Source: Candidatus Omnitrophota bacterium (lineage in GTDB: Bacteria; Omnitrophota; Gorgyraeia; Zapsychrales; JANLHA01). Taken from it: DNA of 64,000 bases. Below, in pieces: positions 1 through 18,100 of the stretch. Position 1 is the first letter of the stretch; every line of letters begins with the position of its first letter. The position numbers were made by a program, and so were the translations under genes. The stretch spans positions 13,864 through 77,863 of the forward strand of contig JBBRHV010000001.1 in NCBI GenBank assembly GCA_038222225.1, in the 5' to 3' direction. The notes beneath the pieces are model-generated. The model ran no database searches, was not told the DNA's origin, and was given only the letters and a program-made list of their open reading frames with translations.

Positions 1-3000
1 GGGTCGGGATGACGTGAGTGATGCGTTTAAGGTGACAGTTGATGAGGCTACGCCGGCCTATCCGGTGAAGTGGAACACGCTAGAAACGCTGCCGGACGAC
101 CGGCAGGAGGTCGATCCTGTTTCTGGTGGAACCGTTGCCGCGGCCCTTACGGCGAATTTTGTGAATCCGCTTGAAGAGCGGTTCCGTCCCCAGGATGCCA
201 GTGGTTTTTACAATCAAGATGATCAAGCCGGCCAGTTTCCTTTGTTTTATAAAATCCGGGACCAGATTGAATTGCCAATGCTTGGTCTTGTCGCGCAGCC
301 CAATTCATTAAATTGTATGTGGTGGAACCGTACTGATAGTCCTTGTACGGAAGGAATTCTTCCGGATCCGGACGAACAGTTCGTGCTTCCTTATCTTCTG
401 GGAGCGAACGTGGAATATGGGGGCGTTGTTGTTTTGGCCGATACTTTAGCGCCGTTGCTTTATGAAGACTATGCCGGAGGGAACGTTTTTAGGGATATGG
501 GCTTTTATGGCGGTCCGGACAAGGTCGGGACGATTGGTTTAGAAAGGCTGTTTGCAGATGACACGATATGTGCCGAAGTGGCAGCCAGACCGGTTCTCGG
601 GCTTTTTGTCGGTGAAACGCCAGCACAAAGTATTCAGAGTAATGCGAATTTTCCCGGATTTAAGCCGGGAACAGATTTTTATTGCTCGGAAAATTATCCC
701 TATGATGCCCATTGCCGAAAAAATGATCCGGCTGGGGGATGTGTTGAAGTAAGAACCTTTCAGAGAATCGTCGATGGCGTGACCCCAATTCAGTGGGAAA
801 CGTATAGTCAAAGTTTTCCAGTTGATTGCTCTTGCGGGGAGACGGCCACCGCGCACCCCACCAAATGGCCAGACGACATTTTGGATTCTTTTTATCGTAA
901 AATCACAGAGCTAGTGGCGTTGACCAATGAATTGAACTCACTACAGGCGCGTAAGCTTTTGACTACGACATTTGCAGATTGGTACGATAACGTAGCGGAT
1001 TGGATTGAGCCTGCGTATAATAAAGCGGCTTGTGAAGCCGCGGCTAACCCGGCGACTGACCGGTCCTGTCTGGAAACGTACACGAAAAAAGAACGATGGG
1101 GACATCTTTGGGTTTTCCGGGAAGACTTTAGGGAAATTTTTCAGATATTAGAATCTTGGCTCAACAATGTGGAAGATATCACCGATGCTGTCCCGGTTCC
1201 AATCAGCTATCAGGGGGGCAGTTGCGGGGAGGCATGGTGTCTGCCCGATCCGGACTGTGTGATGCTGAAACATTCTAGCGGGGTGGGGCAAACCAAGGAA
1301 GCGCTTGGATATGATACGCCTGTTAAAGACGGAGTCTATGACGCCAATGATGATGGTTTGGATGCTGTTATCCAATGTATGGAATGGGCCGAGACGGCGC
1401 AAGTTGAAAGCTTGACGGTTCCAGGAACCTATTTGCCGGATGTGGGCGTCCAAGGGTACTATATCGCGTGCCTCAATCATTGCGGCACCGCGTATTGTGA
1501 TAATCTGCCGAGGCCGTTTGTTCCGGACTATAAGGTGATTACAACTCGACCGATCGATGCTGATTGGAGGATGCCTTTAGCGGCCGTTGATATGGGAGGT
1601 TACCAAAAATGTCTGAGCTCGATAACAGTGGATCAGTGCATGGCTGCTACCCCCGGAGATACGACGGAGTGCGCGGATACGCCGGGGTTTGCTAATTATG
1701 ATCCGCCAGACGTGGAATATACTGATATTATCGGTCAGTGGACGCCGTGTTTAGGCCTTCCAGTGGTAGCAACGGCGTGTGATGGCGGGACGCCTTGGGC
1801 GTCACTCCTTATTACCTGTGCGACCCCTCGGGAAGACATTGATTTGTGCATGAGAAACCGTTTGAATTCCTGTGGGTGGATTGTTCCCGGAGGAGACACG
1901 AGTTTTTATGACGCCATGATCTTATCGACGGATTGTTCTCCCGGGATTGCCGGGGTTGTGCCGGAGAGTCCTTATCGTAGGTGGCTGAAAGCGAACATTG
2001 CTGTTGCTGATCCTTTAGTGGTTGTGGCGAAGCTTGCGATGCGCAAAAAGTTTTTGATTGCTGTGCGCGATGAAATCGAAGAGGCCCGCAACGGATTTAG
2101 AGAGGCGTATAACCGGCTGACAGAATTTTTAGACAATGGGACAGTCTTTGGTACAGCCATGACATTTAATCAGCCTTCGAATCCTAATCCGTGTGAGGCC
2201 GATATGGAGGCTCAGATTGTCCTTCCGGGCACCCCTACGGGATATGCCGATACGGCTGCTCCAGCCGTTCCGTCCCCGTATCGCCGTCTGGACTCGTTAT
2301 GTGATACAGTACCCTGTAAGATAAGATTTCCATATTCTAACCGTACGGAGGTGCATGGAGGGACTTCATTTACTGGCACCAATCAAGATTCTCCGTCAGA
2401 AATGTTGATCAGGGTGCGGACAATGCAACAGCAGGCGGCCGATGTGGATTATCAAGACTCCGGGCTTCCGGCGTTTGCCATTTATGTTTGGCGGGGAGAC
2501 GCGGAGACGGATCCGGATTGGATGGCTAACGGCGTAATGCATGGGGAAGGGCTTTTGCACGCGGTTAAAGTAGACGCCAGGGTACCTCGTCGCTGTAGAG
2601 GCAGATGTGACTTTTATGGCCAGGGGCCCATGGAGTGGCCGAAAATTGAAACATTCACAACCGGCTTTTTAGGCTCTACGCGCTGTTATGAGCTCCGCAA
2701 TTATTTTGGGATGACCAAAGCGCGCGTCATTCGTTTTGACCAATCACCGAACATTTCAAAGCTTAAATTGTTTAATAAAATCCCTTTTGTTCTTCCGAAT
2801 CTTTCTCATCCGGATGTGGGGACTGGACAAAATATTACGGGAGGGAATGTATTTAGAGTTGGCGGCACGCCGGGGATCTGCGAACAGTATGTCGATCCGC
2901 TTATTATACAGCCGGGGATCTGCGAACAGTATGTCGATCCGCTTATTATACAGTTGATTGCAAACAATGTCCCTCCGACGGTAGATCCGGATTTTCAAAG

Positions 3001-3265
3001 CATACAACAAGCTTTTATGATCAATTGGCCGCCGACAGGCTTGGGCCAACCATGGGGCTCATTGACTGCGGCGCAGCAAGCTGATCTAACCTGCTGGAAT
3101 TTTGTGCATGAGAACATTCTAAGGTACGGCGTGGTCAGCCATAGCTGCGCAAATTATTATTGGGGGGGACCCGGAGGCGCTGGCTATGGCCAACAGGGGA
3201 TGAGGGTTAAATTTGCGCCTTGCAATCAGACATTTATTGAAAGCGGGGATCTGGATGTCCACTAA
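1..3265 (+). CDS. Cys-rich hypothetical protein, probably 5'-partial. The first in-window start is GTG at 14 and the frame is open back to base 2. There is no recognisable catalytic domain. It contains an in-frame 42-bp duplication.
   Basis: The ORF track gives 14..3265 (1083 aa). The frame has no stop upstream to the window edge. It shows coding-like composition and many Cys/Gly/Pro residues. It lies directly upstream of tad genes on the same strand. Confidence 0.65.
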   Translation, partial: GRDDVSDAFKVTVDEATPAYPVKWNTLETLPDDRQEVDPVSGGTVAAALTANFVNPLEERFRPQDASGFYNQDDQAGQFPLFYKIRDQIELPMLGLVAQPNSLNCMWWNRTDSPCTEGILPDPDEQFVLPYLLGANVEYGGVVVLADTLAPLLYEDYAGGNVFRDMGFYGGPDKVGTIGLERLFADDTICAEVAARPVLGLFVGETPAQSIQSNANFPGFKPGTDFYCSENYPYDAHCRKNDPAGGCVEVRTFQRIVDGVTPIQWETYSQSFPVDCSCGETATAHPTKWPDDILDSFYRKITELVALTNELNSLQARKLLTTTFADWYDNVADWIEPAYNKAACEAAANPATDRSCLETYTKKERWGHLWVFREDFREIFQILESWLNNVEDITDAVPVPISYQGGSCGEAWCLPDPDCVMLKHSSGVGQTKEALGYDTPVKDGVYDANDDGLDAVIQCMEWAETAQVESLTVPGTYLPDVGVQGYYIACLNHCGTAYCDNLPRPFVPDYKVITTRPIDADWRMPLAAVDMGGYQKCLSSITVDQCMAATPGDTTECADTPGFANYDPPDVEYTDIIGQWTPCLGLPVVATACDGGTPWASLLITCATPREDIDLCMRNRLNSCGWIVPGGDTSFYDAMILSTDCSPGIAGVVPESPYRRWLKANIAVADPLVVVAKLAMRKKFLIAVRDEIEEARNGFREAYNRLTEFLDNGTVFGTAMTFNQPSNPNPCEADMEAQIVLPGTPTGYADTAAPAVPSPYRRLDSLCDTVPCKIRFPYSNRTEVHGGTSFTGTNQDSPSEMLIRVRTMQQQAADVDYQDSGLPAFAIYVWRGDAETDPDWMANGVMHGEGLLHAVKVDARVPRRCRGRCDFYGQGPMEWPKIETFTTGFLGSTRCYELRNYFGMTKARVIRFDQSPNISKLKLFNKIPFVLPNLSHPDVGTGQNITGGNVFRVGGTPGICEQYVDPLIIQPGICEQYVDPLIIQLIANNVPPTVDPDFQSIQQAFMINWPPTGLGQPWGSLTAAQQADLTCWNFVHENILRYGVVSHSCANYYWGGPGGAGYGQQGMRVKFAPCNQTFIESGDLDVH
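2870..2953 (+). repeat. Perfect 42-bp tandem duplication (2 x ccggggatctgcgaacagtatgtcgatccgcttattatacag), in frame, duplicating the peptide PGICEQYVDPLIIQ.
   Basis: Direct reading gives copy 1 at 2870-2911 and copy 2 at 2912-2953. They are identical. Confidence 0.9.
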
Positions 3266-3307: not shown

Positions 3308-3670
3308 ATGATACTATTACGGAATAAAAAAAATAAATCGCGAGGAGTAACAACCGTTGAATATTGCGCGCTGGTTGTCATGATTCTGTCTGCGTTTTGG
3401 TTTGGACTGCGCGGATACATTCAGCGCGGAATGCAGGGTCGCTGGAAGGCGGCCGGAGATGCCTTTGGGCAGGGAAGACAATTTGAGCCAAAGGGCGACG
3501 GCGCGGTTTCAAGAACAGAAGAGTGTTTTTATAGTGAAGAGGTCCACAAATGGGTTGATTTAGAATGTTTTGAAACGGATTGTGACTGCACGAAGGAAAA
3601 CGATGATGCTGATTATGCGACAACCTGTCTTGCATGTATGAACAAGCTCGCGTGTCTGTGCACTTTTTAG
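3308..3670 (+). CDS. tadE: TadE/TadG-like Flp-pilus minor pseudopilin (TadE-like N-terminal motif) with an unusual Cys-rich C-terminal half.
   Basis: The N-terminus is MILLRNKKNKSRGVTTVEYCALVVMILSAFWFGL. This matches the TadE-like signature, a basic leader followed by G-x-(T/A)-(T/A)-VE-(Y/F)-ALV and a hydrophobic helix. It is 120 aa and directly precedes tadB/tadC. Confidence 0.6.
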   Translation: MILLRNKKNKSRGVTTVEYCALVVMILSAFWFGLRGYIQRGMQGRWKAAGDAFGQGRQFEPKGDGAVSRTEECFYSEEVHKWVDLECFETDCDCTKENDDADYATTCLACMNKLACLCTF

Positions 3671-3700: not shown

Positions 3701-4558
3701 ATGTTTGTTTTGGCGTTATTTTTCTTTTTTACAACCTGCGTGATCGTCGGATATTGGATCTTACCTTCGGCATATCGTCAATCAATTGCTTTGAACCAAA
3801 AACGGGCGCATCAGCTGTCGTCGAAGCTCGAGAGGGTGATTCCCCGGGCGCAGATTAAGCAGGTTGTTCAGATGTATCTGCTGGCTCCGCTTTTTTTGGG
3901 GGGATTGTTTTATGCTTTTTTTCCTGAAAAAATGCAGGTTTATGGAGCGGTCATCGGAGTGGTCTTTGGTTTCATCTTCCCGTCGATCTACACACAGTTT
4001 TTAATTGCATCCAACAAACAAAAATTTGGCGACCAGTTGATCGATGTTTTGATGATCATGTCGAGCTCTTTCCGCGGGGGCTTAAGTTTAATGCAGTCCA
4101 TGGAAGCCGTTATTGACGAAATGGGAGATCCGTCCAATCAGGAGTTTTCCACCGTTTTAGGGGAAAACAAAATGGGGGTTTCTCTTGAAGAGTCCTTTGA
4201 GCATTTGTACAATCGTCAGCCGTCATCGTCGCTGCAGCAGATGGTCACGGCGATTCTTTTGGCGCGTGAAACGGGCGGGAACTTGCCGGCGATTTTTCAG
4301 CGGATTGTGGAGGTGATCCGTCAGCGCAAACGCATCCAGGGGCAGATTGAGACCTTGACGCTTCAGGGAAAGATTCAGGGCATTGTTATGGCGGCATTGC
4401 CGGTCGTGTTTTTCGCCTGGGTTTCAGGGATCAACCCGGACCATTTTAAGATCATGTATGATACGCCGGTTGGGCGCAATCTTTTGGTGGTGTCATTTCT
4501 GCTAGAAATTATCGGAGCGTTTATGATTTGGCAGATCAGCTCCTTAAAGGATTTTTAA
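3701..4558 (+). CDS. tadB: TadB-like Flp pilus assembly inner-membrane platform protein (T2SS-F / GspF-like domain).
   Basis: It is 285 aa with an N-terminal TM helix. The central segment DQLIDVLMIMSSSFRGGLSLMQSMEAVIDEMGDP...LARETGGNLPAIFQRIVEVIRQRKRIQGQIETLT is typical of the T2SSF domain. A C-terminal TM helix follows. A GGGGAG SD-like motif sits upstream. Confidence 0.75.
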   Translation: MFVLALFFFFTTCVIVGYWILPSAYRQSIALNQKRAHQLSSKLERVIPRAQIKQVVQMYLLAPLFLGGLFYAFFPEKMQVYGAVIGVVFGFIFPSIYTQFLIASNKQKFGDQLIDVLMIMSSSFRGGLSLMQSMEAVIDEMGDPSNQEFSTVLGENKMGVSLEESFEHLYNRQPSSSLQQMVTAILLARETGGNLPAIFQRIVEVIRQRKRIQGQIETLTLQGKIQGIVMAALPVVFFAWVSGINPDHFKIMYDTPVGRNLLVVSFLLEIIGAFMIWQISSLKDF

Positions 4559-4576: not shown

Positions 4577-5458
4577 ATGCTTTTTATTGCCGCGTTATTA
4601 TGGTTTTTGTGCGCCTTCAGTTTTGTCTTGGGGCTTTTTCCTCTGGAGATGGAGACCCGCCCGACATTGCAGGCCTTCGGCTATGAGTTGCGCCCGACGA
4701 AAAAAAGAAAAAATCCGTTAGCGATCATCCGCTTGATCGCGATGTTTAACCGGCCGTTTGTTGGGTCAGGCAAGCTGCGGGAAAAAATTCTTAAAGAACT
4801 TTCCATGGCCCATGTGAATTTAACGCCGGAGGAATTCTGGCTGTTTAAAGAAATTTCAATTGTGGCGATGCTGGTTTTTACATATCCTCTGATTGAGCCG
4901 GATTACCTGATCATGTGGCTGCTGTTATGTGTGTTTTTCGGATATATGCTGCCCGAGTATTGGCTGCGCGGAAAGATTAAAAAGGTGAAAGGCGTTATTT
5001 TGAAAGAACTTCCTGATGCCGTTGACCTTTTGGGATTGTGCGTGAACGCCGGGTTAGATTTTATGCTGGCTTTGAAGTGGGTTGTTGAAAAATCGCCGCC
5101 ATCGATCATGGTCAGTGAGATGAATATTCTGCTTCAGGAAATTAATGTTGGAAAAACCCGACGGGACGCCTTAAAAGCGCTGTCTTCCAAGTATGATTTG
5201 CCGGATCTCTCAACATTTACGCGTACTTTGATCCAGGCCGATAAAATGGGAACGTCGGTTTCCGAGGCGCTGATCATTCTTTCGGAAGACATGCGTCTGG
5301 CCCGTTACCGTCGGGGTGAACAAATGGCAATGAAGGCGCCGATGAAACTATTGGTTCCGTTGTTGTTTTTTATTTTTCCGGTGGTCGGTATTTTGGTCGG
5401 GGGTCCGATCTTCATTCAATTTATGACCGAGAATCCCATGAGTCGTATTGGTGGGTAA
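4577..5458 (+). CDS. tadC: TadC-like Flp pilus assembly inner-membrane platform protein (T2SS-F / GspF-like domain).
   Basis: It is 293 aa with an N-terminal TM. The segment LPDAVDLLGLCVNAGLDFMLALKWVV...LIQADKMGTSVSEALIILSEDMRLARYRRGEQMAMKAPMKLLVPLLFFIFPVV is T2SSF-like. An AGAGGGG sequence lies 5 nt upstream of the ATG. Only 18 bp separate it from tadB. Confidence 0.75.
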   Translation: MLFIAALLWFLCAFSFVLGLFPLEMETRPTLQAFGYELRPTKKRKNPLAIIRLIAMFNRPFVGSGKLREKILKELSMAHVNLTPEEFWLFKEISIVAMLVFTYPLIEPDYLIMWLLLCVFFGYMLPEYWLRGKIKKVKGVILKELPDAVDLLGLCVNAGLDFMLALKWVVEKSPPSIMVSEMNILLQEINVGKTRRDALKALSSKYDLPDLSTFTRTLIQADKMGTSVSEALIILSEDMRLARYRRGEQMAMKAPMKLLVPLLFFIFPVVGILVGGPIFIQFMTENPMSRIGG

Positions 5459-5586
5459 TCATCAAAAGGAGGGGCTTCTCCGGTCTGGTGCAGTCGATGT
5501 GGCAGTATTTGGTCTGATGAGTTCTTTGTTTTACCTCCAAAAAGAAAAAAGGGCCTGGCGGATTAGCGCACTTTTGTTTTGCGCGG

Positions 5587-5619
5587 AAGGATTCTTTTGT
5601 TTCAAAAGGAATCCTTTCG
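5587..5619 (+). terminator. Candidate hairpin downstream of tadC. The stem GGATTCTTTTG pairs with CAAAAGGAATCC with a one-base bulge and a TTT loop. It is followed only by TTTC.
   Basis: Near-perfect inverted repeat read directly. The weak U-tract lowers confidence that it is an intrinsic terminator. Confidence 0.35.
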
Positions 5620-5718
5620 GCAGAAGGCGCAATTTAAAGGTTTGCTGTTTGAGTAAAAAGGGGACCCTGTAATTAGAGAAGAGGGCTTGAGAAAAAACTG
5701 AAGTTTAAGCAAGATAAT

Positions 5719-5780
5719 TAATGTCCAAAAAATGAAAAATGTCCAATCAGAGAGATAAAAAAAGTTTTTAATGTCCAAAG
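5719..5780 (+). repeat. Three direct copies of (T)AATGTCCAA at 5719-5729, 5738-5747 and 5769-5780 in the leader of the giant gene. The reverse-complement TGGACA half-site recurs at 6011-6020, 6101-6107 and 6140-6146.
   Basis: Direct reading of the intergenic region. This is a candidate operator or iteron-like set of sites. Confidence 0.4.
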
Positions 5781-5920
5781 AATGTGTTAAATTCATGTGT
5801 TCCAGGGGGTTTTATTATATATAAGAAAACATTTATTTGTCCTCGAGAAAATAGTTTTCAAAAAGAACGCAACTCGCTAAAAACAAACAACTTGTTTCCA
5901 AAAAAAATCTTTGAAAAAAT

Positions 5921-5949
5921 TTGTTGCATATATTGACAGGTGGTATACT
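5921..5949 (+). promoter_or_regulatory. Sigma70-like promoter. The -35 is TTGTTG (5921-5926). A 17-bp spacer follows. The extended -10 is TGgTATACT (5941-5949).
   Basis: Sequence match to the TTGACA-17-TGnTATAAT consensus. It sits in an AT-rich intergenic region, 177 nt upstream of the giant-gene ATG. Confidence 0.45.
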
Positions 5950-6036
5950 TTAAACACCTAGCCCGGAGGAAAGTGAGTTAAATTTAAGAAACCGCTTTAC
6001 TTAAGTATTTTGGACAATTCAAAAAAATCTTCATAG

Positions 6037-6064
6037 ACCGCCTTTCCGGCGGTTTTCTTGTTTG
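6037..6064 (+). terminator. Intrinsic-terminator-like hairpin inside the 5' leader. Stem ACCGCC / GGCGGT, loop TTTCC, followed by TTTCTTGTTTG. It is a possible attenuator or the end of a roughly 100-nt leader or sRNA transcript.
   Basis: A GC-rich 6-bp stem plus a U-rich tract lie about 90 nt downstream of the predicted -10 and about 60 nt upstream of the ATG. Confidence 0.4.
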
Positions 6065-6125
6065 TAGAAATCCTTCCGGCTAAAAAACTAACGTACAATC
6101 TGGACATAAAAAAGTACCCACTTTT

Positions 6126-9100
6126 ATGAATGACAGAATGGACATAACTCCACAGGCCCTTCGTGCGGCTGCTTCTGAAGGTTCAGAGCAGGCGGAGATG
6201 CCTATGTCTGATAATGTCCAGAGTGATATATATATATCTAATCCTCAGCGGCCATTTAAAAGCCGTTTTAAGGGTTGGCTTCGTTTAGTTGCTGCTGTTG
6301 TGGTTTTTGTGTTCCTTCCTGAGCAAATCAGCTGGGCCATGAGTTACAATCCGGCGGTTTTATGGAGTGCGCAGCCGATTTCGCTGAGCGGGATGCCAAT
6401 TTCCGCACCAACCGGTCCGGCGTTAGAGCTTCAGCTTCCGCAGCAAGAAGCCTCCGAGATGCTGGCGACCAATATTCAGAGCCTTTTGAGCCGCGCGGCT
6501 CAGGAAGGTAATCGCAATTTGGAGATCCAAATTGCATCTCCCGACGAAAAAGAGTTCCGCAATATTGACGGGCTTCGTGTTTCAGCCAAAACGTCTTTAA
6601 GCCAGGAAAAGATTCAAGAGGCGGTCCGCTGGCTTCGTCAGCCGGAAATTCACCCGCTAAACTGCGGTGTTTTTGCCCTGTATGAATTCTTAAAATTAAA
6701 CAACACTCCGATCTCTCTGGAACAGGCCTCTTTATCGACGCTGTCCATTGACTTGCTTTCTGACATTGTCAAGCCGGGAGATGCGACGCTCAAGACGTCT
6801 TTGTACGCCATCGATAAAGTGGTTTCGCTTTATCAGCTGGAGTATGCGGTCATTAAGCTGGACCCCAAAGAGATCTTGAAACTGAACGCTCCTTTTATTG
6901 CGAATTTCGGAAAAGAACATTTTGTGACCGTCACGGCGCTTGATGAACAGGGCGTTCACATGCAGGACACGGGCGTCGCGCGAACGCTCTCTCAGCCGGA
7001 ATTTTTGGAAAATTTAAGCGGGTATGTTCTGATTTTAACAAAGAATATCCCGATTTCTGTTTCTTACCAAGATGTCAGTGACGTTGAAAAAGCCTTTGTT
7101 TGGGGCGACCGCTGGGTAGACCAATCCGACGAGTTGCCTGGATTATTAGGAGATGTCGGCGCAGCGTGGGCCCGCGCCGGTATGCAGGTTGCCATTTCGG
7201 TCGCTATTACGGTTGTGACCTTTGGTCTGGGATGCGCCATGGCCGTAGCGAGAGACGGCGTTCTCCTGGCCACCGAGCTTGCCAAACTCTTAATGCAGGT
7301 CATTGTTTCTGTGGCCCTGATCGGTATTTCGGAGCTGGTCAACACCATCAATCAGATTGCTGTTTTGAACGGCTGGTGGGATGAAGATGTCGGCTTCGTC
7401 ATAGGAATCGTTATCTCCACGGCCTTGTCGGTGGGGGCGGGCATGTTTGCCGGCGGCGCGGCGGGTTCCCTTGGGGCATCCGGCGCTACAGGAGCGGCGT
7501 CACAGACAGGGTCAGCCATCGGCGGCGCGGCGTTTGCCGGATTAGGCACGGGTATCTCAAATGTCCCTTTGACTTTTGCCAGAAGCTTTGCCCAAGCGCT
7601 CGTCGTTGCGATTCCCAAGGCATATCTTGCCAGGGAGCTGTATGAAATCATTGATATTGACGATCCTATTTTAAAATCAGCCGTGGTGGGGGTCTTGTCA
7701 TCCGTCGGAACCACCATTGGGTTGGTGGGGCTGAGTTTTGGCCTTGACCAAATTGGTTTAAATTCTGTTAATGGGTTTATGGGCATAAATGTCGCCGATT
7801 CTTTTACAGAATTTCTGAAAGATCTCGGTAAAAACGTGGGGCGCACCGTTGCGGCTAATGCGCTGGCGGTCGGGTTAAGATATCTCGCTTTGGAGATTGA
7901 TGATGAAACGTTTGCCGCCGACACCTTGGCGTCGCAGGCCATCGGACAAGTGGGGCAGGCCTTCGGCGGATGGATTTTTGATATGGCGGTGAGCGGATCA
8001 TTGCCGCAGCTTTTTGCCGGGGAGGTCCAGAAGGGGCAGATGTTTCAAGACCCTGGCTCTGAAAAGATGGAGGTGCAGGCGCAGGAGCTTTTTGTGACCA
8101 GGTCAGACGGAACGCCTGCTCGTCTTACCATGGAAGATCCGGGTCGATATACCTATACAGATACTGCAGGGGAGACGGTTTTTCTTAAGCCGGGGGAGGT
8201 GGTCGAGACAGTGCCATTGGAAAGAAACGACGCCGGTCAGTGGGTCCCGCAAGGGACTGCGGATAATAAGAAGGACGACAGCTCCTCTTCAAGCATGAGA
8301 ACTCCCACACAGTTTATGAATGTAAGGACCCATCAGCCGGTCCAAATCGCCGATTTCACAAAAGTTACGACACAGTATTATATAGCCGATAAAAAGGGGA
8401 TGCCGGCCTTTGTCGAGTATGATAAGGCAAGCGGGAAAATTACCATTCCCCAGAAAAGCGTTGACCAGTTGAAAGCCGATAATTTCCTGAATTTAGATGC
8501 TAACACCAAGTATTCTTTGCTCGAAGGAAAAGACAAGAATGGGAACCTGCAGCTGGGTTTAGGAAAAAGCTGGTTTTGGGGGACGCTGACGACAAAAACT
8601 TTGACGTCATTGGTGGGGGTTGCGTTGGCGTTCGGCATGGATCGTCTGGAAGATAAATTTATTGGTAAAGATGATCAGGGGCAGAAAGACAAGTTCCAAA
8701 CGCTCGGGTTTCGGCTGATGGCTTTTCTTGGAACGGCCTTATCAGCGGAAGCCACTGGAGCGCTTTCGCGTTCCATGTTTTCTGCTCCGAGTGGGACAGG
8801 TCTTAAGCCGGGTACGGATACGATCAGTCCATTTGGCGGTATTTTCATGAGGAGCGTAGAGAAGCTTGCATTAGGGATCAACGACAGCATGTTCAGAGCT
8901 AACGGCGCGATGCCGAAAGATTGGGATTGGAGTAATGGTGAAACGTTTAAGTTTGGGGGCGACGGAGTATCACGATATCGATATCAAGCAATAGATCAAA
9001 TGGTGCGTTTTTACGAAGGGGCCGGGGAAAGCGCCGGTTGGGGCTTGGATTCCTATTTTAAGATCAAAGACCTTCGTAAGCAGCTGGAAGGGGAGCAAGA

Positions 9101-12100: not shown

Positions 12101-15100
12101 TGACCAGGAGGGCGGCAAGCCGGGGCAGTTCCGTGTCGCTAAAGAATATGAGCTGAAATACGACATGCTGAAATCCGGCTATACCAAAGAAGGCGTTAAG
12201 GACGGCGAAATCGCCCATCGGATGACCGCGGATGTTTTTGAAATGGCTTCGTTTGAAGTCGGCGGAGAAATCGGATATTCTTCGAGCGGAAAAATCTTCG
12301 GTTTCGACGATGCGTCGATCCAGCCGCTGTACCGTTTTGCTGAGGGAAAAAACGCCAAGCTGTTTGCCAAAGTCAAGAACGATCCGGCTGAGCGAGAATA
12401 CAAAGCTGAAAAGATCAATTTTAGTTTTTCAAACGATGGCGACGGGACGTTTGTATCTTTATCCAACTTTACGCTTGTCAAAGGTCAGCAAGACGCCAAA
12501 GCGGAAGGATCCGGCACGAGCGATATGAGTGTTGTGATGAAGGAAATTTTAGTCCCGATTCCGACCTTGTTTAACCGAAACACCGTGACTGCCCGTAAAA
12601 TGAGCAATGAAAATGAAGCGGCCGTTAAGCTCGCGGCCAAAAAACAATTTTCAAATATGAACGAGAAGATCGAGGCCATTGACGGAAACAATATTTTTGT
12701 TGTAACGGCGGCAGAAATGAAAGGCAGCGGAGCTTCTGAAACCGACACGGTTGTGCTGGTGACCGTTCCTGCTCATTCTGAGACGGACAAGCATGGGAAG
12801 ATCATAGAATATCCGGAAGCCTTGCGCCTTTATGTGCGCGAAGAGATTGCCAAAGATGTTTCTAAACTTTCCGATATCAAGATGATGACACACGAGGCAT
12901 TTTTGCAACAGAAGCAAATTGAGGTTGCGGCGGCGGACAATAAAACGAGAAAGGTTGCTTATTCAACAGCGGTTCGGCTGGACAACGAAGGGAACCCTCT
13001 TAAGGGATTGGATGACAGCGGCGCAGTAACGATGTTAGGAGATCTTTCACGTGAGGATTCCCCTTGGGGAAAAGAGATTGCAGCGCAGGCATCTCTGGTG
13101 ACCCGCATCATGGTGGTTGATCCAGCGGATATGCCGACCGGAGAAGGGATGGAGGGGGTCAACGCGGTTTTAAAAGGCAACATTTTGATTGTCACGCAAG
13201 CCGTGATCGACGATCCAAAAGAAATCAATGTGACCGCATTGTCGCATTTCGCTAAAGGAGAAATTATAACGGTGGTTAAAGCCGACGGCACCACCCGTAA
13301 AGTTCTTTTGAGCACGGAACTTTCTTCTGATGAGGGCAAGAAAGTTATCGAACTGGCCCAGCCGGCTTTAGATGCGCGAGCAGAGGCGCGGTTTGCTAAA
13401 ACTCATAAAAAAGGCGATGACCTGTTTGGGCGTAGTGTTTCTGAAGTCCGGGTGGTCGATGACGCGCTGATCGCCAACGGCCAGATGGCGCTGTCTTTTG
13501 AAGGAGATGTTTTGTATGTGGCAGAAGGGGCGCTGGCAAAAATGCAAGAAGCTCTACTGGGCACGCAGGAAACCGGAGAATTTTCGATGGGAGGACCGTT
13601 AGCGCTGGGAAACATCCGTGCTTCTCAAGCTGATCCTAACGGGGTTTATGCCAGCATTGCTTCAGGGCCTTTAGGCCGGATGATCTTAAATGAAAATAAA
13701 TTCACTCTTTATGAGGCTAATCTCAGCGAAGGGGATGTGCCGGGCGAGCTTAGAGCCAGGGACGCAAACGGAGTTCTGATGGGAGAGGCTTTGGTTGAAG
13801 ATGCCGGACCCAAGCGTTTGGCGTATATGTTTAGTCCGTTGCAGCAAGGATATCAGCCGGAGATCAGCGCAGATTTTAATATGAACGGGCGTCTTTTTGT
13901 TCCGGAGTCGAAGAAATTTTCAGTTAATATTTTTGAAGAAAAACAGGAATTAGCCAAGCCCCTGGGAGTTCCGGAAGGAATGCCGAATACGTTTTTGCCT
14001 CAGGCAAGCCGTTCCTTAACAAAATTTAGCGGGATTGCGGATTTTAAAGGCGGAGAGATCCAGATCCATGCCGGGTCAAGAGGCCAGAATGAAGCTTCGC
14101 AGACAATGGCCATAAAGGGAATCATTGACGGTAAAAATGAATGGGTTGCCACAACTCTCAAACAGACCAGTATGGATTTCTTTGATGACTTCGGTCGTAA
14201 ATCATTAAGCCAAGGCTTCTCGCAAGAATTAACGCGAGCCTTATCAAGTGAAAATTGGAAAGTAGCGGTCGATGAGGCGAAAGTGACGCCGGAGGCCGGT
14301 TTGCTGCGCTGGCATGGAGAGGATTTAAATCTGAACGGTTCTTCTGGTACGTTGTTCGCCAAGGTGACTTTGGCTGACGGAACAACGAAGGAATCAAAAG
14401 AGGTTCAGTACCGTCACACGTTTCTTGATCGGCGGTTGATGACCGATGCTGAATATGAAGTATATAAACAGGTTAATGCCGCTTCCCAGAATCAAGGGGG
14501 GGCGTTTGTCCCGCTGAGCGGCCGCGTTGCCGAAGCCTTTGTCAAATCGACGAAGGAAGGAGACCTTCCGATTGATCTGAAAGGTACTCAGATTTATAAG
14601 CGGCCCTTGAGTCAGGCCACGCGCGCGGCCTTGGCGATTTTGCGAAGCATTCTGCAGGATTACCAAGCCAATGGGACGGTTCACGCGAAGAAGGACATGT
14701 TCTTGCCAGGCATGGACAGCCTTGCTGCGGCTTTATCCGGCGCTTCTAAGGGAGAGCTGGACGCAATCATCAAAGAGGCGGAGCAGCTTTATGGGAGAGC
14801 GACACCGGATACGATTGTCAAGACCATGATTTATAAGAATTCTGACTTAGTAGCTATGATGTTGGATGTGGCTTTGGCTCAAGACGGCGCTGGGATGGCA
14901 TTTAAAAGCACTGCCGATGCCGACGGGCTTAAAAGCATGATTGAGACAGATGTTCATTTAGCAGTCTTAGGTAACGGCATGACCGGGATCAACGCTCTAA
15001 AGAATCTTGCTTTGAAGGCCGCGAACGGTGACATGGCAAAAGCCCAAGTAATGTTAAATGAGGTCTCGGCTGTTTTGAGCGGAACGTTCAGAGGGGCGGG

Positions 15101-18100
15101 AATGCTGAATGTTTTAAAACGCACGGAGTATAAGGATGCGGGCATATTAAATGAAATGATCCAGCTGGTTAAGCAAGGGAAAGATGGAAATAGCGGCTTT
15201 GGAGAGATGGAGGATTCCGCCAAATTAGCTGTGCTGGTTTTAGTTGCCGCGATGACTACGGGAAAGACAGACTTGATAAGCAATTTGGATAAGGATAATG
15301 CAGCTGTGAAGTTTTTAAAGCAGATGGGTTATCAACCCGGCATAGAGCTGACAAAAGTTGCCGAAGAATTTGCTAAGGCTTTTGATCTTTCAGATCCGGC
15401 GTTGACTGATAAGCAGAAAATGGAAAGGGCTTCGGGCCTTGCCCTTCTCACCAGTATCGGCAACACGATGAAAGGCGAAGATGATGCCGAGAATGCTTTT
15501 GAATTTATTATTCGAAATTCTGACGCGCTTAAAAACAGTAATTTGTTTTCTCCCAAGCAGGCAGTTTTGAATGAGTTATCTGAAAAAATAAATGTTCTTC
15601 AAAATTCAAGAACGAAAGACGCAAAAACAGGAGAGTTTAAACGTATAGGTTTGACTGTGTTTTCGGCAGATGCTTTGCAGGCTTTAGCGGATTTTGGCAG
15701 GGACCTTAGGGCATCAGTTGAATTGAACAACAAATTGACCGATGCCGGGATTTCTTTCGCGGATCGGGTTTCATTATTAGGAGAAGTCGACAAGCTGCAG
15801 ACGGAAAAAGGCGCAGATGGAAAAGCACTAAGCCCGATAGAGATCGTTGTGAGCTTGCTTGGCGGCGGGCAGAGGGCGCAAATTGCTAAAGTGTTCGGTA
15901 ATCAAGGACTGAATGAAACATTTTTGGATCAAGCGGTGCAGACCTATCAAACAACACAGCGCCAGGCGAAAGAAATAGAATTTATGAAGTTGGCGGGATT
16001 GATGATTTCAGAGGGACCGATCAATAAAGCAAATATTTCTGCGGATAAAGAAGGAGATCCTACTAAGGCGATCTTAAACGTTGACGCAACCAAAGGGCAG
16101 GGATTGTGGATCGCGTTTGGCGCTCCGCAGCAGAATCGTTTAGAAGCCTTTATGGCATCGCTTGCCGGCGGTAATGAATATGAGCTTTCAAAGGCTTTAG
16201 ATGCGAGCGGGATTTCAGTTAAGCAAAAGGAAGAGATTCAGCAGGCGGCTTCTGCGTTCAGTGAAGTGATGGCAGGAGCTGAATATACAGGTGTCAATCC
16301 GCAAGAGGCCTTTGCAAAACTTTTTGTCTCGAAACTTTCTGACGGTACCCTGCAGGCTTTGACCAGTGCAGGTGTGATTGATAAAATTGCACGGATTTCT
16401 AATCCAATCTATGACCAAAAGCAGCTGAATGTGAATTTCAATCCGCTCTTGGAAGGATCTGTGTTTACCAAAGGCGAGCCGGCAGGAACGCCTGGGATCA
16501 TGATTGCGCGCGATGATTTTTCGGGGATCAGTTCAGTTCTAAACAGCGGAGCAGTAACCATTAAGAACGGCATGTTCTTTATTCAAGAGGCAGGGCTTCG
16601 AACCACATCACCGATTTACGCGCCCGGCGTGATCGGACAGATGAAGAATGTGATCAATTATAAAGAAGGCGCGCCTGTCAGCGCTTCTTCGGTCGGCGTT
16701 CAGTATTCAGACATGATGACATCACAGGGCACAGAATGGAATGTTAATTACGGGCTGATCGCCATGCTTAAAGACGGTACTGCTTTCGGTACGTTTGATT
16801 TAGTAGGCGCAGATAAATATCAGCAGGATTATCTTTTTGTTCCGCAGGATTTTAAAGTGTCAGAAGGCTCGATGGCGTCTTTGGCGCAGGGTGAGAACGG
16901 TTGGACTCAGACCCGTTTTGCTGACGGCGCAACACTGAAAGGGGAATTTTTCGGCGGATATATGTCAAAGGATGGGCTTTTAAGCAGCGCAGTTTTGTAT
17001 GGAAAAGGCCCGTTCTGGGAACGGGTGAAAGAAACGCCGACTGGTTATACCCCACGCCAAACGAAAGATATGAATCTGGCAACTCTCGCCATGGTCGAAG
17101 GCGATAACATTATGGGCAATAGCAAGACTGATGTTAAAGAAGCGTATACCCGTTTTACGACGCCGGATAAAGACACGATAGTATCTGCCGTTCCGATGGA
17201 TATCGGACCGGATGGAAATAAAGCATATACGGCCATGGCTGAAAACGGCACGCGTTTGGTGTTTGCTCTTGGCTCCAAGGGCCCTGACGGTGAAGGCTAT
17301 TTTACCGGCATGCTTCGCCCGGATTTCAGACGGCCGGGAAGCTTGCATTTGTTTTCTAAGGATACAGTTCTTTACGATAAAAAAGGCAAGCTTGACCTGT
17401 CCAAGGCGATTATTCAATTTGTTAAAGGCCGCGGAAAATATCAAACCGATATTGGTAATTTCTTAAACGCAGCAGTGGATGAAATATTTTTATCAACAGG
17501 AGTTAAGCCGGGCGTGTCTGTTCGTGAGGGCATGTATGCTTACGGGCGGCTGCCTAGTTCAGAAGCAGTTATACCTAAAGGAAGAGAGGCGCCGGAACAT
17601 TTCGATACAACCGGTACACCTGCCGATGTGCTGGTTGGTCAAGTCTTTACGGAAGACGGCGGAAAATATTTCGGAAAAGGCTTTTTAGGGCGGTTTACGG
17701 ATAATGCGTTTGTTGGTCTTGCGAAGCAGCGGTCATTTCATGGCGATCTGGCGCAGAACGATATTCCTAATTGGCTTGGTTTTGAAGAAAAAGGGCTACA
17801 GGTTTTGGGTGAAGGAGGACAATGGCTTGGCGTAAGCAAGGATACATATAAGGCAAGAGTCTATCAGATATCGCTTGCCAAAAAAGAAGGCAAAGAAGAT
17901 GTCTATGTTCCTATTCTTATGAAGGCAATGACGTTTGCAAATGGCTCAGTAAGGCGGGAATTTAGACTGCAGGGCAAGGAGAAAAAAACAGATGCAGAGT
18001 ATGGGAGTCTTGTATTCAAGAAATTTGAATTGAATTCTCTTGTCGCAAAACTTGAGGCGATAATGCCTAAAGAGAATGTGGAGAAAAAAGACAACAGCAT

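Follow-up and report, generated by a model that had tools for sequence, protein, structure and literature searches.

Giant proteins of the Omnitrophota, named 'Archaeovorins' by West-Roberts et al. (2023; bioRxiv 10.1101/2023.11.21.568195), carry N-terminal C39 domains. The passages of that preprint on these proteins place the domain near the N-terminus beside a predicted signal peptide, propose that it cleaves the giant protein or other substrates, describe a type II secretion system (T2SS)-like locus conserved upstream of the giant genes and report a SecA-DEAD domain in most of the proteins. In a further preprint (bioRxiv 10.64898/2026.06.07.730766), the passages on domain architecture list a PF03412 group of 24 proteins, which ranks among the two largest clusters of long Omnitrophota proteins. 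A precedent for a C39 protease that stands alone in the periplasm is FapD, which the Fap amyloid system of Pseudomonas needs for secretion and whose substrate is without a canonical double-glycine leader (PMC5557850). Here we describe the C39 domain at the head of a giant open reading frame (ORF) in a 64,000-nucleotide (nt) stretch of a Candidatus Omnitrophota bacterium (contig JBBRHV010000001.1 of assembly GCA_038222225.1, positions 13,864 to 77,863, forward strand). This whole stretch is called the window, and coordinates are counted from its first letter.

The locus resembles the giants of West-Roberts et al. in its very long ORF, its many transmembrane (TM) regions, an N-terminal C39 domain after a signal-like segment, T2SSF genes upstream and its origin in the Omnitrophota. 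It shows no difference in kind from them and is another orthologue. Since both the observation and its interpretation coincide with published statements on the Omnitrophota giant proteins, the C39 head is to be regarded as already known; it is real, ordinary for its protein class and already named in NCBI annotations. Eight homologue records were looked up at NCBI or JGI; the six from NCBI are all Omnitrophota, including Gorgyraea and Gygaella, and several NCBI homologues bear the name 'cysteine peptidase family C39 domain-containing protein'. Pfam scans did not find a SecA-DEAD domain in the part of the giant protein that lies in the window. The present analysis adds residue-level detail, namely the conservation of the triad, the lone Cys, the missing Gln, the signal/anchor and AFVWG motifs and a topology derived from charge bias; the passages of both preprints that concern the domain contain no analysis at residue level.

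On the + strand, one frame is free of stop codons from nt 6084 to 63998, the last complete codon of the window. The probable start is ATG 6126 (MNDRMDITPQ...), the first in the frame, which aligns with the start (MDDRLDINMQ...) of an 80%-identical homologue in an Omnitrophota metagenome-assembled genome (MAG). From here the protein has at least 19,291 amino acids (aa), in agreement with the original prediction of a chain of roughly 19,000 aa or longer, and its 3' end lies past the window. The frame is taken as a real coding sequence because Pfam domains scoring above threshold occur in it along its length (C39, GNAT, Peptidase_M23, Glucan_synthase, cytidylate kinase and HD). The features that define the domain are as follows.

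6126-63998, + strand: giant ORF, an Omnitrophota-type giant membrane protein of at least 19,291 aa (open frame, start conserved with the MAG homologue, in-frame Pfam domains)
6573-7085, + strand: C39-family papain-fold peptidase core, aa 150-320 (Pfam, profile against PDB, AlphaFold2, Foldseek, residue conservation)
6630-6632, + strand: core residue Trp169 (conservation)
6750-6752, + strand: core residue Asp209 (invariant)
6966-6968, + strand: core residue Asp281 (conservation)

The segment aa 150-320 is a genuine C39-family papain-fold domain with a Cys180/His265/Asp281 triad, by its identity, its conservation and its architecture. Translation places the codon of Cys180 at nt 6663-6665, within HPLNCGVFALYEFLKL (starting at nt 6651), and that of His265 at nt 6918-6920, within EHFVTVTALDEQGVHMQD (starting at nt 6915), exactly as had been predicted. 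The extent first proposed, 6570-7050, does hold the domain but ends too early, as the structural core reaches about aa 320 (nt 7085). The Pfam family Peptidase_C39 (PF03412) matches with 38-42 bits (best 41.9, E=1e-10, cut-off 22) and is the sole Pfam family reported in aa 1-662, even at E<=10. The second model that had been suggested for comparison, PF13529 (Peptidase_C39_2, or C39-like), gave no match in aa 1-662 at the same threshold. In NCBIfam, the domain shows a sub-threshold match to the peptidase region of an NHLP bacteriocin ATP-binding cassette (ABC) exporter (16.6 bits against a cut-off of 853), a score that reads as a fit to C39 without membership of the NHLP transporter family.

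The relatives of the domain came to light only with exhaustive searching: a word-indexed homologue search recovered only 3, whereas HMMER, run exhaustively over 1.84 billion representatives, returned 244 at E<=1e-3 and 130 at E<=1e-10. Two alignments were used below, one of 41 relatives (A1) and one of a closer subfamily of 34 sequences (A2). PF03412 is also matched by 37 of the 41 domain-family members. Searched against the PDB, the A1 profile found LahT (LahT150, 6mpz) at E=1.3e-10, PCAT1 at 1e-5 and ComA at 2e-3, with His265 on the catalytic His of 'NHFVV' and Asp281 on the Asp of 'DP'; a weak second sub-alignment puts Cys180 on the Cys of LahT 'ECG'. The family profile is required for this result, as a single-sequence phmmer search of the domain against the PDB yielded only a chance S-layer match (E=0.73).

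The predicted structure agrees with these assignments. AlphaFold2 run on the A1 alignment gave a model with a mean predicted local distance difference test score (pLDDT) of 94.3 and a predicted TM-score (pTM) of 0.89. The best PDB neighbor in Foldseek is again 6mpz (E=1e-6, TM-score 0.72 on target, root-mean-square deviation (r.m.s.d.) 2.6 Å over 128 columns), followed by 4ry2 (PCAT1), 3k8u (ComA) and then the C39-like domain of HlyB, so that the comparison with ComA and LahT proposed at the outset came out in favor of the assignment. The top 20 PDB matches are all C39 or C39-like with the exception of 9l5u, a papain-like cysteine protease toxin. Within the model, Cys180 opens a helix (model residues 31-42), His265 lies directly before a strand and Asp281 at the end of the one that follows; as modeled, this is the placement of the three residues found in a papain fold. 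The C39-type domain that had been read from the letters alone is borne out by Pfam, by the PDB profile and by the fold.

Conservation was assessed in 161 aligned domains from 152 proteins, with denominators that vary by position. Cys180 is kept in 146 of 154 (95%) and His265 in 154 of 160 (96%), while Asp281 is kept in 124 of 155 (80%) and replaced by Glu in 15 more; all three are invariant in A2. His265 lies 85 residues after Cys180, and Asp281 16 residues after His265. Cys180 is the sole Cys in aa 70-350, exactly one Cys is present in 128 of 144 homologous domains, and the giant protein as a whole has 16 Cys in 19,291 aa (0.08%). A lone conserved Cys in a Cys-poor protein is a strong argument for a functional nucleophile and against an inactive C39-like domain (CLD) of the HlyB type, and the conservation of Cys, His and Asp makes an active protease likelier than an inactive C39-like domain. 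The domain is probably a catalytically active C39 cysteine endopeptidase. Neither of the findings named beforehand as fatal to the assignment was made: the C39 match is significant in sequence and in fold, and the catalytic Cys is present in 95% of the homologues. The family also has invariants of its own, Asp209 (161 of 161) and Trp169 (151 of 153).

The nearest structural relatives are the peptidase domains of the PCAT/AMS transporters (MEROPS C39; 6mpz, 4ry2, 3k8u). The fold (TM-score about 0.72 on target, r.m.s.d. 2.6-3.8 Å), the Cys, the His and the Asp at His+16 are shared, and the motifs 'HFVV' and 'D(P/T)G' align. In contrast, sequence identity is only 17-21%, and there is no fusion to an ABC transporter, as Pfam shows neither ABC_membrane nor ABC_tran, whether in aa 1-662 (E<=10) or over all 19,291 aa (E<=0.01); the original prediction had likewise held the domain to be free of such a transporter. 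The domain further differs from the PCAT/AMS peptidases in being predicted periplasmic rather than cytoplasmic, in lacking the Gln at Cys-6, in having no evident double-glycine substrate, and in its invariant Asp209, its extra N- and C-terminal elements and some 13 extra residues after the Cys helix, which lie before the 'KTSL' motif by comparison with LahT, PCAT1 and ComA. With FapD, likened here by description, it shares a C39-type Cys/His protease without an ABC transporter and a link to secretion, the extracytoplasmic site being a prediction in the present case; FapD, however, is a small protein of its own, encoded in an amyloid operon, whereas here the domain heads a protein of >19,000 aa beside T2SS/Tad-like genes. 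The CLD of HlyB (3zua) has the same fold and is likewise associated with the movement of a very large unfolded substrate, but it lacks the catalytic Cys that is 95% conserved here.

The C39 domain belongs to an N-terminal 'head' module that is conserved in the Omnitrophota giant proteins and runs in the order positive-inside signal/anchor, linker, C39 domain, AFVWG motif and membrane segments. The elements that flank the core are these.

6252-6365, + strand: conserved signal/anchor signature, aa 43-80, PFKSRFKGWLR, an 11-residue hydrophobic core and PEQISWA/MSYNPAVLW (homologue alignment)
6441-6572, + strand: ordered N-terminal extension with a helix (aa 106-126) and a strand (aa 132-135) (extended AlphaFold2 model)
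7092-7145, + strand: post-domain motif AFVWGDRWVDQSDELPGL, aa 323-340, directly before the TM cluster (homologue conservation, AlphaFold2)
7176-7739, + strand: four to five Gly/Ala-rich hydrophobic TM-like segments, aa 351-538 (predicted from hydropathy only)

Kyte-Doolittle hydropathy shows one hydrophobic segment at aa 48-72 and a cluster of them at aa 351-538; the next lies only at about aa 5657. The C39 domain is the first recognizable domain of the protein and is followed by four to five hydrophobic segments, much as expected for a first globular domain ahead of a multi-TM cluster. It had been described as lying right after an N-terminal TM anchor; a hydrophobic segment does lie upstream, but about 80 residues, partly an ordered extension, stand between the two, and the segment itself may be a cleavable Sec signal peptide rather than an anchor. 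The extended AlphaFold2 model (aa 33-350, pLDDT 82) shows this extension with a pLDDT of 73-89 in the helix and 54-57 in the loop at aa 133-152, and a strand at aa 149-152 runs across into the core; where homologues are long enough to cover the extension, L121 and A125 are conserved. The TM cluster gave no Pfam family match, ABC_membrane included. Of 113 relatives, 95 have a single hydrophobic segment ahead of the domain, whereas only 43 of 92 have a TM segment within 150 aa behind it.

Across 34-94 homologues the signal/anchor signature is near-invariant, with the form PFxSRFKxWIR, 11-12 hydrophobic residues and PEQxSWAFNYNPxVLW; F48, W51, Q67, W70, A71 and Y74 are invariant in A2. This conservation far exceeds what a generic signal peptide needs, and the signature may serve specifically for targeting or recognition, or mark a site of processing. 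With its h-region of about 11 residues, a Pro at -7 and S-W-A at -3 to -1, the segment has the look of a Sec signal peptide and may be cleaved by signal peptidase I after A71. A prepilin-type (class III) signal was considered for the same motif and rejected, as it has neither G at -1 nor E at +5. Lys plus Arg average 2.8 in the N-flank of the hydrophobic segment and 0.46 in the C-flank; of 94 homologues, 88 have the more positive charge on the N-flank and none has it on the C-flank. By the positive-inside rule, the N-terminus would be cytoplasmic and the C39 domain would lie on the periplasmic side, and the domain is probably extracytoplasmic. Behind the domain, the post-domain motif has the family form AFVWGxxWxDRSDxLPGL. 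Of the 44-64 homologues long enough to include it, 41-63 keep its A/F/W/G/W positions, W326 and G327 are invariant in A2 with F324 and G339 nearly so, and its first part is ordered in AlphaFold2 (pLDDT about 87).

A variant arrangement was seen in eight Omnitrophota proteins of 2,000-3,200 aa (P0033, P0067, P0075, P0079, P0086, P0090, P0104 and P0111), which have two or three internal C39-type copies at about aa 600 and about aa 1500-1900 in place of the single N-terminal copy. In the giant protein of the window, a scan of the 19,291 aa with the family hidden Markov model detected no second copy, and the C39 domain is single.

On balance we favor an exported, membrane-tethered and active C39-type endopeptidase that processes an exported polypeptide, most likely the giant protein itself, although it is from sequence and models that we infer its activity, sidedness and substrate. 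The hydrophobic segment would direct the N-terminus through Sec, leaving the N-terminus inside, and the peptidase would come to stand at the periplasmic side of the membrane, where the membrane segments that follow it would keep it tethered and where it would cut an exported polypeptide. The likeliest targets would be exposed linkers of the giant protein, in the same or in neighboring molecules, and the alternative would be proteins handled by the adjacent T2SS/Tad-like machinery; in either case the recognition sequence would be other than a canonical double-glycine leader. The role suggested originally, processing of the megaprotein itself or of a co-secreted substrate, is supported to this degree, and is the same speculation as is already voiced for this protein class in the published passages.

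Several observations count against this assignment of activity, site and substrate. The PF03412 alignment covers only profile positions 45-131 of 133, which is the His/Asp half of the family. The oxyanion-hole Gln at Cys-6, which we take to be Gln11 in ComA numbering and whose LahT counterpart is the Gln of 'QMEALEC', is missing: the position holds E174 here and varies among family members (G/E/D/S/K/N), and the closest polar positions with partial conservation are H/N/Q at Cys-4 and N/P at Cys-1. The positive-inside rule is the one basis for the predicted periplasmic placement, and AlphaFold2 draws a continuous 25-residue helix at aa 48-72 that is compatible with an uncleaved anchor. As for the substrate, a search of the 19,291-aa megaprotein for double-glycine leaders in strict and loose form gave no match where 0.6-2 would be expected (about 2 for the pattern E-h-x2-h-x-G-[GAS]), and relaxed forms show no enrichment; in the absence of such a motif, no substrate site was identified there. 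Plain GG dipeptides are also rarer in the 19,291 aa than expected (101 against 137±11 in shuffles).

The same data bear on the alternative explanations. Short motifs are bound to recur in 19,000 residues, and this prior is all that speaks for a chance Cys/His coincidence with no real domain behind it; such a coincidence is refuted by the significant Pfam, PDB-profile and fold matches, by 244 homologues with conserved residues and by the high-confidence AlphaFold2 model, and its probability is practically nil. Passages of West-Roberts et al. (10.1101/2023.11.21.568195) raise the idea of a non-catalytic CLD as in HlyB, which would bind or tether an unfolded chain, for instance the nascent giant protein during export, without cleaving it. 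The missing oxyanion Gln would suit such a domain, and the CLDs of HlyB (3zua, 7sgr) and Vibrio (3b79) are among the fold matches. However, these CLDs lack the catalytic Cys, which here is present in 95% of 154 homologues in a nearly Cys-free protein that also keeps His and Asp, and the peptidases of LahT, PCAT1 and ComA surpass the CLDs in both sequence and fold matches, which leaves a purely binding domain very improbable in our estimate.

Two further explanations accept a catalytic Cys and change its setting or its chemistry. The domain could be a cytoplasmic, PCAT-like leader peptidase that takes the leader off a small peptide or protein partner ahead of its export, the TM cluster serving as a degenerate export channel. 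To our knowledge, every biochemically characterized transporter-borne C39 domain is cytoplasmic, and a TM cluster follows the domain here as it does in the PCATs. We nonetheless hold a cytoplasmic site to be quite improbable, given that the positive-inside bias of 88 of 94 homologues predicts the trans side, that a TM segment lies within 150 aa downstream in only 43 of 92 homologues, that neither ABC_membrane nor ABC_tran is present and that the 6 kb upstream hold no convincing small ORF with a leader peptide of the double-glycine type. A degenerate PCAT was rejected on the lack of ABC domains. The papain fold might instead serve another chemistry, either acyl or amide transfer of the BtrH/CtaG type or a cell-wall amidase or transglutaminase activity directed at prey envelopes. 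CtaG and BtrH-like proteins do appear among the weaker matches, the giant protein carries envelope-directed enzymes (an M23 peptidase and a glucan synthase), and the family combines invariant residues peculiar to it (Asp209, Trp169) with the lack of the Gln. Yet the fold matches to CtaG, BtrH and 3erv have E values of 7e-3 to 0.15 and poor TM-scores, compared with 1e-6 for the peptidases, and no NlpC/P60, CHAP or transglutaminase family was matched in Pfam at E<=10 (aa 1-662); we regard a chemistry of this kind as distinctly unlikely.

Beyond its head, the exported endopeptidase that we favor would be joined to a chain with further enzyme domains on the + strand of the same ORF.

About aa 7760, + strand: GNAT acetyltransferase domain (Pfam)
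About aa 9120, + strand: alpha/beta hydrolase, a weak match (same ORF)
About aa 11270, + strand: Peptidase_M23 domain (Pfam)
About aa 15284-15826, + strand: Glucan_synthase, 1,3-beta-glucan synthase (Pfam, 172 bits)
About aa 16495-16665, + strand: cytidylate kinase domain (Pfam)
About aa 16900, + strand: HD domain (Pfam)

TM clusters lie between the enzyme domains at about aa 10190-10760, 14600-15190 and 15800-16320, and the giant protein appears to alternate modules of cytoplasmic type (kinase, GNAT) with modules of periplasmic type (M23). A DUF2934 is also embedded in the ORF, and the embedded enzyme domains together span approximately nt 29400-57000.

Upstream of the giant gene, the window holds the following features.

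14-3265, + strand: Cys-rich ORF of 1083 aa, probably truncated by the window start, without family match
3308-3670, + strand: 120-aa ORF just upstream of the T2SSF pair, starting MILLRNKKNKSRG and continuing VTTVEYCALVV
3701-4558, + strand: first T2SSF-family gene, a GspF/TadB/TadC-like inner-membrane platform (Pfam PF00482)
4577-5458, + strand: second T2SSF-family gene, GspF/TadB/TadC-like (Pfam PF00482)
5459-6125: non-coding spacer of 668 nt before the giant gene

The two T2SSF genes score 65 and 46 bits with PF00482. The N-terminus of the 120-aa ORF resembles a class III signal of the Flp/TadE type, but its Flp_Fap score of 13.5 bits is below the cut-off. The 1083-aa ORF has no Pfam or NCBIfam match and contains a short internal duplication, with PGICEQYVDPLIIQ occurring twice. 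A hairpin resembling a terminator lies in the spacer at 6035-6055, and ATG 6126 has no obvious Shine-Dalgarno sequence before it; in a promoter and terminator scan of the 668 nt, counts were not above shuffle expectation. The sole match to the domain among 185,579 species-representative genomes is in the Candidatus Omnitrophota MAG JAKLFA010000003.1, with 80% identity over the domain, where the gene order is the same as in the window: a large ORF, two T2SSF genes (285 and 293 aa) and the giant gene. The counterpart of the 1083-aa ORF occupies the same position there and has at least 950 aa. A second metagenomic contig has the same layout, with its giant gene split into many short gene calls; in the MAG and in this contig alike, the T2SSF genes match those of the window in size.

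The idea that the C39 domain might cut the giant protein has already been published, and the window adds one example and residue-level detail to it rather than a new concept. A protein of 39,678 aa is known from the Omnitrophota culture Velamenicoccus archaeovorus, for which proteomics has been published. The question that it bears on is whether the bacterial giants of 20,000-150,000 aa remain a single chain or are cut into pieces, and the conserved, apparently active C39 head offers the most tangible way into it, as a foldable unit of small size (about aa 100-345) whose single Cys is putatively essential. More speculatively, and in our judgment unlikely as a whole, the head module might be a dedicated export-and-maturation unit specific to the Omnitrophota giants, in which a periplasmic C39 domain without the classical Gln and double-glycine specificity would cut the polyprotein at new, non-GG sites during its passage across the membrane, perhaps in a process linked to the adjacent T2SS/Tad-like apparatus. 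If this were true, the giant genes would encode bacterial membrane 'polyproteins' with a built-in maturase, cut into separate enzymes.

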